From a virus (taxonomy: Duplodnaviria > Caudoviricetes), in IMG/VR virus record IMGVR_UViG_3300020045_015293, positions 1 through 64,000 of that record: a DNA stretch of 64,000 nt, one strand, 5' to 3'. The notes below the pieces were generated by a model. The model ran no database searches. It was not told where the DNA came from and saw only the letters and a list, made by a program, of their open reading frames with translations. Below, one piece after another: positions 54,356 to 54,715 of this stretch; position 1 is the stretch's first letter, and the number at the start of each line of letters is the position of its first letter. Made by a program: the position numbers and the translations under genes.

Positions 54356-54715
54356 ATGAATAACTAGAAATTAATTATTATAACCAGGAAAGATTTAACA
54401 CCAGGTTACCAAGCTGTACAATCAACACATGCAGCAATCGATTTTTGTTTTAAATACCCAGATATAGCCAAAGAATGGCATTAGGTATCAAATTACTTAT
54501 GTCAAGTATCATGTGAAAATGAAGAACACTTAAGAAAATATGTGTTAAAAGCTAAACAAAGAGGAATTGAATATATTGAATTTTATGAACCTGATATAAA
54601 CAATGAGTTAACAGCTATTGCTTTAGAACCAGGTGAAAAAAGTAAAAAATTAATTTCAAACTTACCACTAATGTTAAAAGGATATAATAATGAAAGTTTG
54701 GATATCAAAAATTGA
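54356..54715 (+). CDS. Pth2-like peptidyl-tRNA hydrolase with two in-frame TAG codons (missed by the ORF track)
   Basis: RKDLTPGYQAVQSTHAA and EPDINNELTAIALEP; TAG at 54365-67 and 54482-84. Confidence 0.82.

Follow-up and report, generated by a model that had tools for sequence, protein, structure and literature searches.

The stretch of phage DNA analysed here (the window) comprises the first 64 kb of an 88,640-bp IMG/VR contig (IMGVR_UViG_3300020045_015293), which has a G+C content of 25.8%, carries 21 transfer RNA (tRNA) genes and has almost all of its genes on the + strand. Its subject is aPth2, a short gene resembling those of Pth2-type peptidyl-tRNA hydrolases, whose frame contains two amber (TAG) codons and which lies downstream of a gene for a tRNA with the amber-reading anticodon CUA:

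54356–54715, + strand: Pth2-like gene aPth2, 119 codons ending in TGA; a full-length product would need read-through of two UAG codons
54356–54367, + strand: gate, consisting of ATG AAT AAC followed by TAG (54365–54367); next base A
54482–54484, + strand: TAG at codon 43, the second one in frame; next base G; located between the invariant Trp41 and the conserved Ser45
52442–52513, + strand: amber suppressor tRNA of the phage (anticodon CUA), which presumably opens the gate; found by ARAGORN and matching Rfam RF00005 with 42.1 bits (cut-off 29 bits)

As confirmed by translation, aPth2 begins ATG AAT AAC TAG AAA TTA and ends with the TGA at 54713–54715, and the 119-codon frame claimed by a preliminary description of this DNA is free of lesions other than the TAGs at codons 4 and 43; the CUA tRNA, which that description put about 1.9 kb away, lies 1843 nt upstream on the same strand. 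Overlapping the last 24 nt of the gene in another frame is a 59-codon open reading frame (ORF) at 54692–54871, whose ATG lies at 54692.

Read through both TAGs, the product matches Pfam PTH2 (PF01981; E=3.3e-7, 31 bits, cut-off 23) and the phage family phrog_1866 of PHROG (function unknown; E=3.3e-16), and falls far below the cut-offs of the NCBIfam Pth2 equivalog models (23 bits versus 126 and 22 versus 82). A profile of 44 homologues matches solved archaeal and human Pth2 structures, best of all 2zv3 (E=4.5e-8), and the AlphaFold model of the protein (predicted local distance difference test score, pLDDT, 93.6) is matched by Foldseek to 2zv3, 1wn2, 3erj, 1q7s and 1xty with a probability of 1.0 and template-modelling (TM) scores of 0.70–0.79, so that aPth2 is confidently predicted to adopt the Pth2 α/β fold. 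Within this fold it defines a subfamily with a PGYQ sequence instead of the GKGK loop and an invariant Glu78-Pro79-Asp80 (EPD) instead of the DAG motif. Canonical Pth2 is reported, from work on the Sulfolobus enzyme, to use as catalytic residues a Lys in the GKGK loop and an Asp in the DAG motif; in the alignment to 2zv3 this Asp falls beside the EPD triplet, an acidic residue being kept and the Lys not. A search with the homologue at related locus L065 also returned L125–L133, in which a distant Pth2-like domain is embedded in larger proteins, with neither gates nor tRNAs; these were set aside.

Conservation of the early stop codon

Homologues were drawn from a phage collection, from IMG/VR (80 loci) and from metagenome contigs (80 loci kept of at least 498 relatives), and pooled into 166 loci encoding 137 distinct proteins. 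A gate was scored strictly where an ATG is followed by zero to six further sense codons, a stop and then the conserved KL-x3-TRxDL core; by this definition 120 homologues have a TAG gate, three a TGA gate and one a TAA gate, and to these are added six with a TAG behind a longer leader and that of phage Myrna, which opens with GTG TAG GTG. Alignment of homologues, which the preliminary description had named as one check on its proposal, returned an early TAG rather than sense codons in about 127 of the 137 proteins, far more often than chance would give. Family-wide the stop falls at codons 2–8, most often with one sense codon between ATG and TAG, and in cultured relatives the first TAG persists down to about 30–40% identity.

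Internal stops beyond the gate occur in the window, in the L002/L074/L075 clade and in L009, at differing sites and exclusively as TAG; no internal TAA or TGA was found among the 137 distinct homologues. In the window, the second TAG coincides with the end of helix 2 in the AlphaFold model and with an alignment column that varies among 43 homologues (K in 13, T in 10, E in 8, and others). As judged from these comparisons, the early TAG is a family trait and not a sign of decay, the gate is both ancestral and selected, and the codon-4 TAG is its only ancestral element, with the codon-43 TAG as a lineage-specific second lock that may have been selected as such or may merely be tolerated under the suppressor. 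That two nonsense mutations simply killed a Pth2-like gene would agree with the presence of two premature stops in the standard code and with the behaviour of gene callers, which skip or truncate the gene in the GenBank records of relatives, but such a pseudogene is already contradicted by the comparative data: the frame has neither frameshift nor TAA nor TGA, the model is of high confidence and the conserved motifs are intact, the first TAG is common to nearly the whole family, and no internal stop in the family differs from the codon read by the local suppressor. We regard decay as next to impossible.

Of the 124 strictly scored homologues, 90 have an A directly after the gate stop, 33 a G, one a C and none a T, and a purine 3' of an amber codon is the classical favourable context for suppression; together with the early position of the stop, it would give the tRNA an advantage over the release factor and keep the cost of failed attempts low. 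Relatives that use Shine-Dalgarno motifs have GGAG or GAGG 6–9 nt before the upstream ATG and not before the post-stop codon, a spacing that places the start of translation upstream of the gate.

At some loci, ORFs for HNH/NUMOD3 homing endonucleases stand upstream of aPth2 (L013:1709–2440, L033:3246–3990, L045:3172–3960 and L067:2978–3940) and open with a duplicate of its first 20–25 or so codons, amber gate included, as if the endonuclease had inserted into the aPth2 gene and borrowed its gated start.

Linkage and covariation of gate and suppressor tRNA

Where each side of the gene offers 2 kb or more of flank, a tRNA-CUA lies within about 4 kb of the gene in 66 of the 73 loci with a TAG gate, a tRNA-UCA accompanies all three TGA gates and a tRNA-UUA the single TAA gate; the truly ungated genes are without a suppressor tRNA in six of six cases, including L054, whose complete genome of 176 kb has about 27 tRNAs of assigned type. 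The tRNA-CUA shares the strand of most gated genes, is often less than 100 nt away and occurs twice at some loci. With a covariance model built from the suppressor tRNAs, a tRNA-CUA was additionally located at a distance of 3–6 kb from aPth2 in both Yersinia phage fHe-Yen9-03 and the L020 contig, and in Pectobacterium phage CBB one lies 3.7 kb downstream of the gated gene. Phage transfer-messenger RNA (tmRNA) genes are found 1.4–3 kb upstream of the gated gene at L029:2176–2528, L042:1624–1976, L047:654–1032 and L053:2287–2643.

The anticodon loop of the window tRNA, CUCUAAA, recurs in 48 of 63 related suppressor tRNAs, whose acceptor-stem features are mixed (N73 is A in 37, G in 15, U in ten and C in one), in contrast to ordinary isoacceptors. 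The window tRNA has G1:C72, C2:G71, G3:C70 and U73, a combination that may resemble that of E. coli tRNA-Gly. The inserted amino acid could be inferred neither from the acceptor stems of the 63 suppressor tRNAs nor from the columns aligned with the TAGs, which vary; since the gate positions are variable and the acceptor identities mixed, its nature seems to be unimportant.

The exceptions to TAG are the most telling cases. At L065/L070 the gene opens with ATG, six codons, TGA and ATT, with a tRNA-UCA about 1.7–2.3 kb away and TGA as the commonest ordinary stop of the flanks; at L193 it begins MKTKH-TGA-V, a tRNA-UCA lies 0.8 kb downstream and the ORF itself ends in TAG, and genes flanking L065 and L193 terminate normally at TGA and at TAG. 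L165 reads MT-TAA-V with a tRNA-UUA 1.4 kb downstream, whereas its closest relatives (about 70% identity) read MT-TAG-I with a tRNA-CUA. At L164 a TAG gate is paired with a tRNA-UUA; classical ochre suppressors decode UAA and UAG alike. By nearest-neighbour identities among the 137 proteins, a measure of kinship that is not a tree, the three non-TAG lineages are not mutual nearest relatives and the nearest relatives of each are TAG-gated, which makes at least three independent switches of the gate; the tRNA-UCA of L065 is 84% identical to the tRNA-CUA of a TAG-gated locus. What is conserved is thus a stop codon matched by a private tRNA, rather than the TAG triplet or an RNA motif, and this covariation of lock and key is the strongest evidence for dependence on the suppressor. 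In the preliminary description, the frame was held to be designed rather than decayed and its product to be made only after expression of an attenuator-controlled suppressor; the former is borne out by the family-wide early stop, the suppressor linkage and the gate/anticodon covariation, and of the latter the dependence on the neighbouring CUA tRNA is upheld by conservation, linkage and covariation. Between 51900 and 55500 no terminators were found, and promoter-like sites did not exceed shuffled controls.

A further variant may involve a four-base codon. At L203, a mini-ORF consisting of ATG TTG followed by TGA (ATG TTG TGAA, L203:3476–3486) precedes a Pth2-like frame that resumes in +1, and a well-formed tRNA about 200 nt upstream (3200–3274) combines a perfect 5-bp anticodon stem with the 8-base loop AUUUCAAC, which contains a four-base anticodon, UUCA, complementary to UGAA. 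The same +1 layout is found at L044 (MKEEQLG, then TGAA; 3970–3994) and L062 (MKRI, then TAAC; 3976–3991), where the Pth2-like frame is without an in-frame ATG or GTG start; a pattern search for a UUCA-loop tRNA in these two contigs gave chance-like hits only. L203 is at most suggestive of a natural UGAA gate read by an 8-base-loop tRNA, and the TTG that follows TGAA in L203 and L044 makes a coupled restart an alternative there. Similar odd-loop tRNAs lie beside ungated genes at L081 and L076.

The gated layout is present in several cultured phages, namely Pectobacterium CBB, Yersinia fHe-Yen9-03, Salmonella Arash, Acinetobacter ME3, Ralstonia RsoM2USA, Xanthomonas XacN1 and Tenacibaculum pT24:

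L085:2974–3309, gated gene of CBB
L086, about 2974–3312, gated gene of a cultured phage
L224:2989–3303, gated gene of ME3
L225:2989–3321, gated gene of Arash
L226:2989–3340, gated gene of RsoM2USA
L090:2971–3420, gated gene of pT24
L222:952–1806, gated gene of XacN1 (ORF364), a fusion of HD domain and aPth2

In XacN1 ORF364, GAGGA and 8 nt precede ATG AAG TAG. The CBB record also names homologues in Cronobacter phage GAP32, and no annotated coding sequence covers the close homologues in Serratia phage BF and the Erwinia pEa_SNUABM phages. In the GenBank records inspected, the gated gene is absent, truncated or begun after the stop (for example CBB_406, ME3_195, Arash gp84c/gp85c, pT24 gp293 and XacN1 ORF364), and the tRNA of Arash at L225:4307–4378, annotated as tRNA-Phe, has the anticodon CUA according to ARAGORN. 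Mycobacteriophages Bxz1 (gp154, L087:2971–2979) and Myrna (gp84, L089:2980–2988) start with ATG TAG GTG or GTG TAG GTG and carry a tRNA-CUA 130–300 nt downstream, annotated as 'tRNA-OTHER' in Bxz1 and as 'tRNA-Ser' in Myrna.

Stop-codon use and competing explanations

Taken together, these comparisons make it highly likely that aPth2 is a tRNA-hydrolase-like gene locked by a suppressor tRNA, and without the suppressor that the phage itself encodes, full-length protein is very probably not made. Several observations weigh on the other side. Seven TAG-gated loci have no tRNA-CUA in their flanks, and in the complete contigs L007, L061 and L083 none ranks among the best tRNA matches; strong suppression ought to burden the phage wherever its own genes end in TAG, and TAG ends are common in some relatives; the contig is about half a genome, and unseen late genes might use TAG more widely; in the hidden Markov model alignment to 2zv3 the canonical catalytic Lys aligns with a conserved Tyr, and the chemistry of the enzyme may differ; the post-gate codon is ATT, GTA, GTT, ATA, ATC, GTG or ATG, all possible weak restarts, in 110 of the 124 strictly scored homologues; and in Bxz1 and Myrna, with their NTG TAG GTG starts, the Shine-Dalgarno sequence is spaced for the GTG after the TAG, so that the gate may be bypassed there.

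The last two points, together with the TTG after TGAA in L203 and L044, would suit a mechanism in which ATG-NNN-NNN-TAG is a tiny upstream ORF after which the ribosome restarts at the next codon, the suppressor being irrelevant. In the window, however, AAA follows the gate, and no restart there could help past the TAG at codon 43; other homologues continue with ACA, ACT, AGC, AGA, GGC, AAC, AAT or CAC, and GTA and GTT are not known to serve as start codons. Restart also leaves unexplained both the suppressor linkage and the covariation of TAG with CUA, TGA with UCA and TAA with UUA; we judge it highly improbable.

Suppressor dependence of a single gene must also be set against a partial, genome-wide recoding in which, as in code 15, many late genes outside the half covered by the contig would read TAG as sense, with aPth2 as just one more such gene. 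By CheckV the contig represents about 49% of the phage genome, so whole-contig statements about TAG cover half a genome. Within this scope, the ORFs of at least 80 codons (about 119) end in TAA in 87 cases, in TGA in 30–31 and in TAG in only two, a near absence of TAG that, like the incompleteness of the contig and the occurrence of a homologue in TAG-recoding Lak megaphages, speaks for recoding. Against it, the observation first made for the window, that no other gene has an internal TAG, extends to the whole contig, since neither in the window nor in all 88,640 bp did scans turn up a further credible gene interrupted by TAG in its frame; the flanking genes of aPth2 at about 160 related loci read normally in the standard code, in which cultured relatives are annotated throughout; and a gate fixed at codons 2–8 is unlike diffuse recoding. 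In addition, the authors of the XacN1 genome found nothing behind 18 amber stops (PMC5852040). The trait called 'code 15' combines in-frame stops in many genes with poor coding density in the standard code, and what is found here is one gene of about 119 in 88.6 kb. Recoding of this kind therefore seems very unlikely.

A reading of the whole contig with TAG as Gln was tried and dropped, as it added almost no coding length and no further TAG-bearing gene. Among ORFs of 80 codons or more, just two have a TAG end, 17447–18892 and 59753–60232; in both the TAG is followed by a purine, and read-through would add 20 and 2 residues, respectively, before a TAA. The preliminary description had also invoked the preference for CAA among Gln codons, which is real (668 CAA versus 47 CAG) but a weak argument: this bias tells little about design, given that a single base change turns the abundant TAT (1114 codons) into TAG.

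Neighbours, proposed function and known systems

On the upstream flank of aPth2 lies the gene of an NlpC/P60 peptidase (53689–54186; E=1.9e-32). Downstream, 55446–56000 encodes a 2H phosphoesterase of the LigT or 2'-5' RNA ligase type (E=1.3e-7) with a weak match to Acb1, and three tRNA-Leu genes separate it from aPth2.

In one clade of relatives, the gene of a 190-residue HD protein with its own ATG-x-TAG start stands directly upstream of aPth2, as a second family with a gate, and elsewhere the two are fused:

L031:3394–3987, HD protein gene beside aPth2
L019:3400–3996, HD protein gene beside aPth2
L003:2498–3085, HD protein gene downstream of the Pth2-like gene
L063:3968–4903, fusion with the HD domain behind the Pth2-like domain
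L065:3947–4930, fusion with the HD domain behind the Pth2-like domain (likewise in L070)
L222:952–1806 (XacN1), fusion with the HD domain in front, behind ATG AAG TAG (likewise in Xanthomonas phage Xoo-sp13)

In sequence, this protein of the HD phosphohydrolase type is similar to the HD domain at the C-terminus of CCA-adding enzymes (TIGR02692, E=9.6e-8; HDIG, E=1.5e-5; PDB 3wfo–3wfs, E=2.5e-4), a domain that repairs tRNA 3' ends; no homologue of it was found in the 88.6-kb contig. Because of this partner of the CCA-enzyme kind, the tRNA-Leu genes and the nearby 2H phosphoesterase, aPth2 could belong to a set of phage functions for cleaning or repairing tRNA 3' ends, which is among the least certain of our proposals; the HD link would point to an undescribed phage module of tRNA 3'-end maintenance or counter-defence. 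CBB also carries a canonical, ungated PTH2, and the gated enzyme therefore probably has a special task. Ungated homologues in phages that lack a suppressor, such as L054, suggest that the job of the enzyme is independent of the suppressor itself.

In the mechanism that we propose, ribosomes would start at the ATG at 54356, meet a UAG three codons on and meet another at codon 43. With host release factor 1 acting alone, a tripeptide would be released and no enzyme made; once the phage tRNA-CUA has been made, processed and charged, both UAGs would be read and the full-length protein would result. Synthesis of aPth2 would be conditional on, and steeply dependent on, the activity of the private tRNA, the second TAG making output approximately proportional to the square of suppression efficiency, and the level of the enzyme would be tied to the amount or charging state of phage tRNA.

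The purpose of such an arrangement is the least certain part of our reading. Ranked first is a coupling of enzyme level to functional phage tRNA, as a proportional or timing control; second, we hypothesize a negative feedback resembling that of prfB, in which the hydrolase lowers the charged suppressor tRNA and limits its own synthesis, so that an enzyme of the tRNA-ester hydrolase type would be kept from depleting charged tRNA; third comes a plain delay of expression. Induction by tRNA stress, as suggested in the preliminary description, is doubtful in sign, as tRNA damage would lower and not raise read-through. A more elaborate sensor circuit is a tentative idea that we think rather unlikely as a whole: the suppressor tRNA would report on the charged-tRNA pool, read-through would set the level of a tRNA 3'-end hydrolase and, in some phages, of its HD partner, and the hydrolase would itself discharge or repair tRNAs, giving a prfB-like feedback rebuilt at least three times for other stops and possibly once for a four-base codon.

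Among the closest described systems are recoded phages. In Lak, crAss-like and other gut phages that recode TAG or TGA, in-frame stops occur in 26–71% of genes, mostly late ones, and stop-codon recoding has been proposed to regulate late genes (bioRxiv 10.1101/2021.08.26.457843). As in those phages, a phage-encoded suppressor tRNA would here read in-frame stops, TAG stops are depleted, and the proposed role is to control translation of some of the genes while the host uses the standard code; unlike in those phages, where stops are scattered along ORFs, a single gene (two in some relatives) is affected at a fixed site just after the start, the target is a tRNA-hydrolase-like enzyme rather than a lysis or structural gene, and the genomes otherwise use the standard code. 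The gate may mark a first step towards full stop-codon reassignment in phages.

In prfB, the gene of release factor 2, a +1 frameshift at an early UGA, stimulated by a Shine-Dalgarno-like element, senses the gene's own product. The two systems share an early in-frame stop that decides the product of a translation-factor gene, with feedback on decoding capacity possible in both; they differ in that the stop of aPth2 would be read in frame by a dedicated tRNA and that feedback by the product is here only hypothesized. A +1 layout of the prfB type is not found in the window, where the downstream ORF is in frame, and occurs only in L203, L044 and L062. Engineered amber switches, in which an orthogonal tRNA gates a gene through an early UAG, are laboratory constructs; the present system is like them in principle but natural and widely conserved, with UGA, UAA and possibly four-base variants. 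It would provide a natural counterpart of this synthetic-biology device in phages of Proteobacteria, Bacteroidota and Actinobacteria, complete with natural 'anticodon swap' controls.

With canonical Pth2 of archaea and eukaryotes and the PTH2 of jumbo phages, aPth2 shares fold, sequence family and association with phage tRNA and RNA-repair genes; it is set apart from them as a distinct subfamily by PGYQ in place of GKGK and EPD in place of DAG. A review that notes PTH2 in jumbo phages makes no mention of stop codons in the gene (PMC7824862), and the authors who described suppressor tRNAs in XacN1 (PMC5852040) and phiKp24 (PMC8386662) identified neither target nor purpose for them. Both the tRNAs and the phages are of the kind considered here, and the gate of XacN1 ORF364 offers a target; the suppressor tRNAs of large standard-code phages, whose purpose has been called unknown (PMC5852040, PMC8386662), would thereby gain a concrete target. 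The loss or truncation of the gene in the records of cultured phages exposes a systematic annotation error, and the presence of the layout in several such phages makes the idea directly testable.

In the literature that could be searched, no publication on an amber-bearing phage Pth2 gene was found. In summary, the comparison supports well both the reading of the two ambers as design rather than decay and the dependence of aPth2 on the suppressor tRNA, in what would be a further form of stop-codon recoding by phage suppressor tRNAs.
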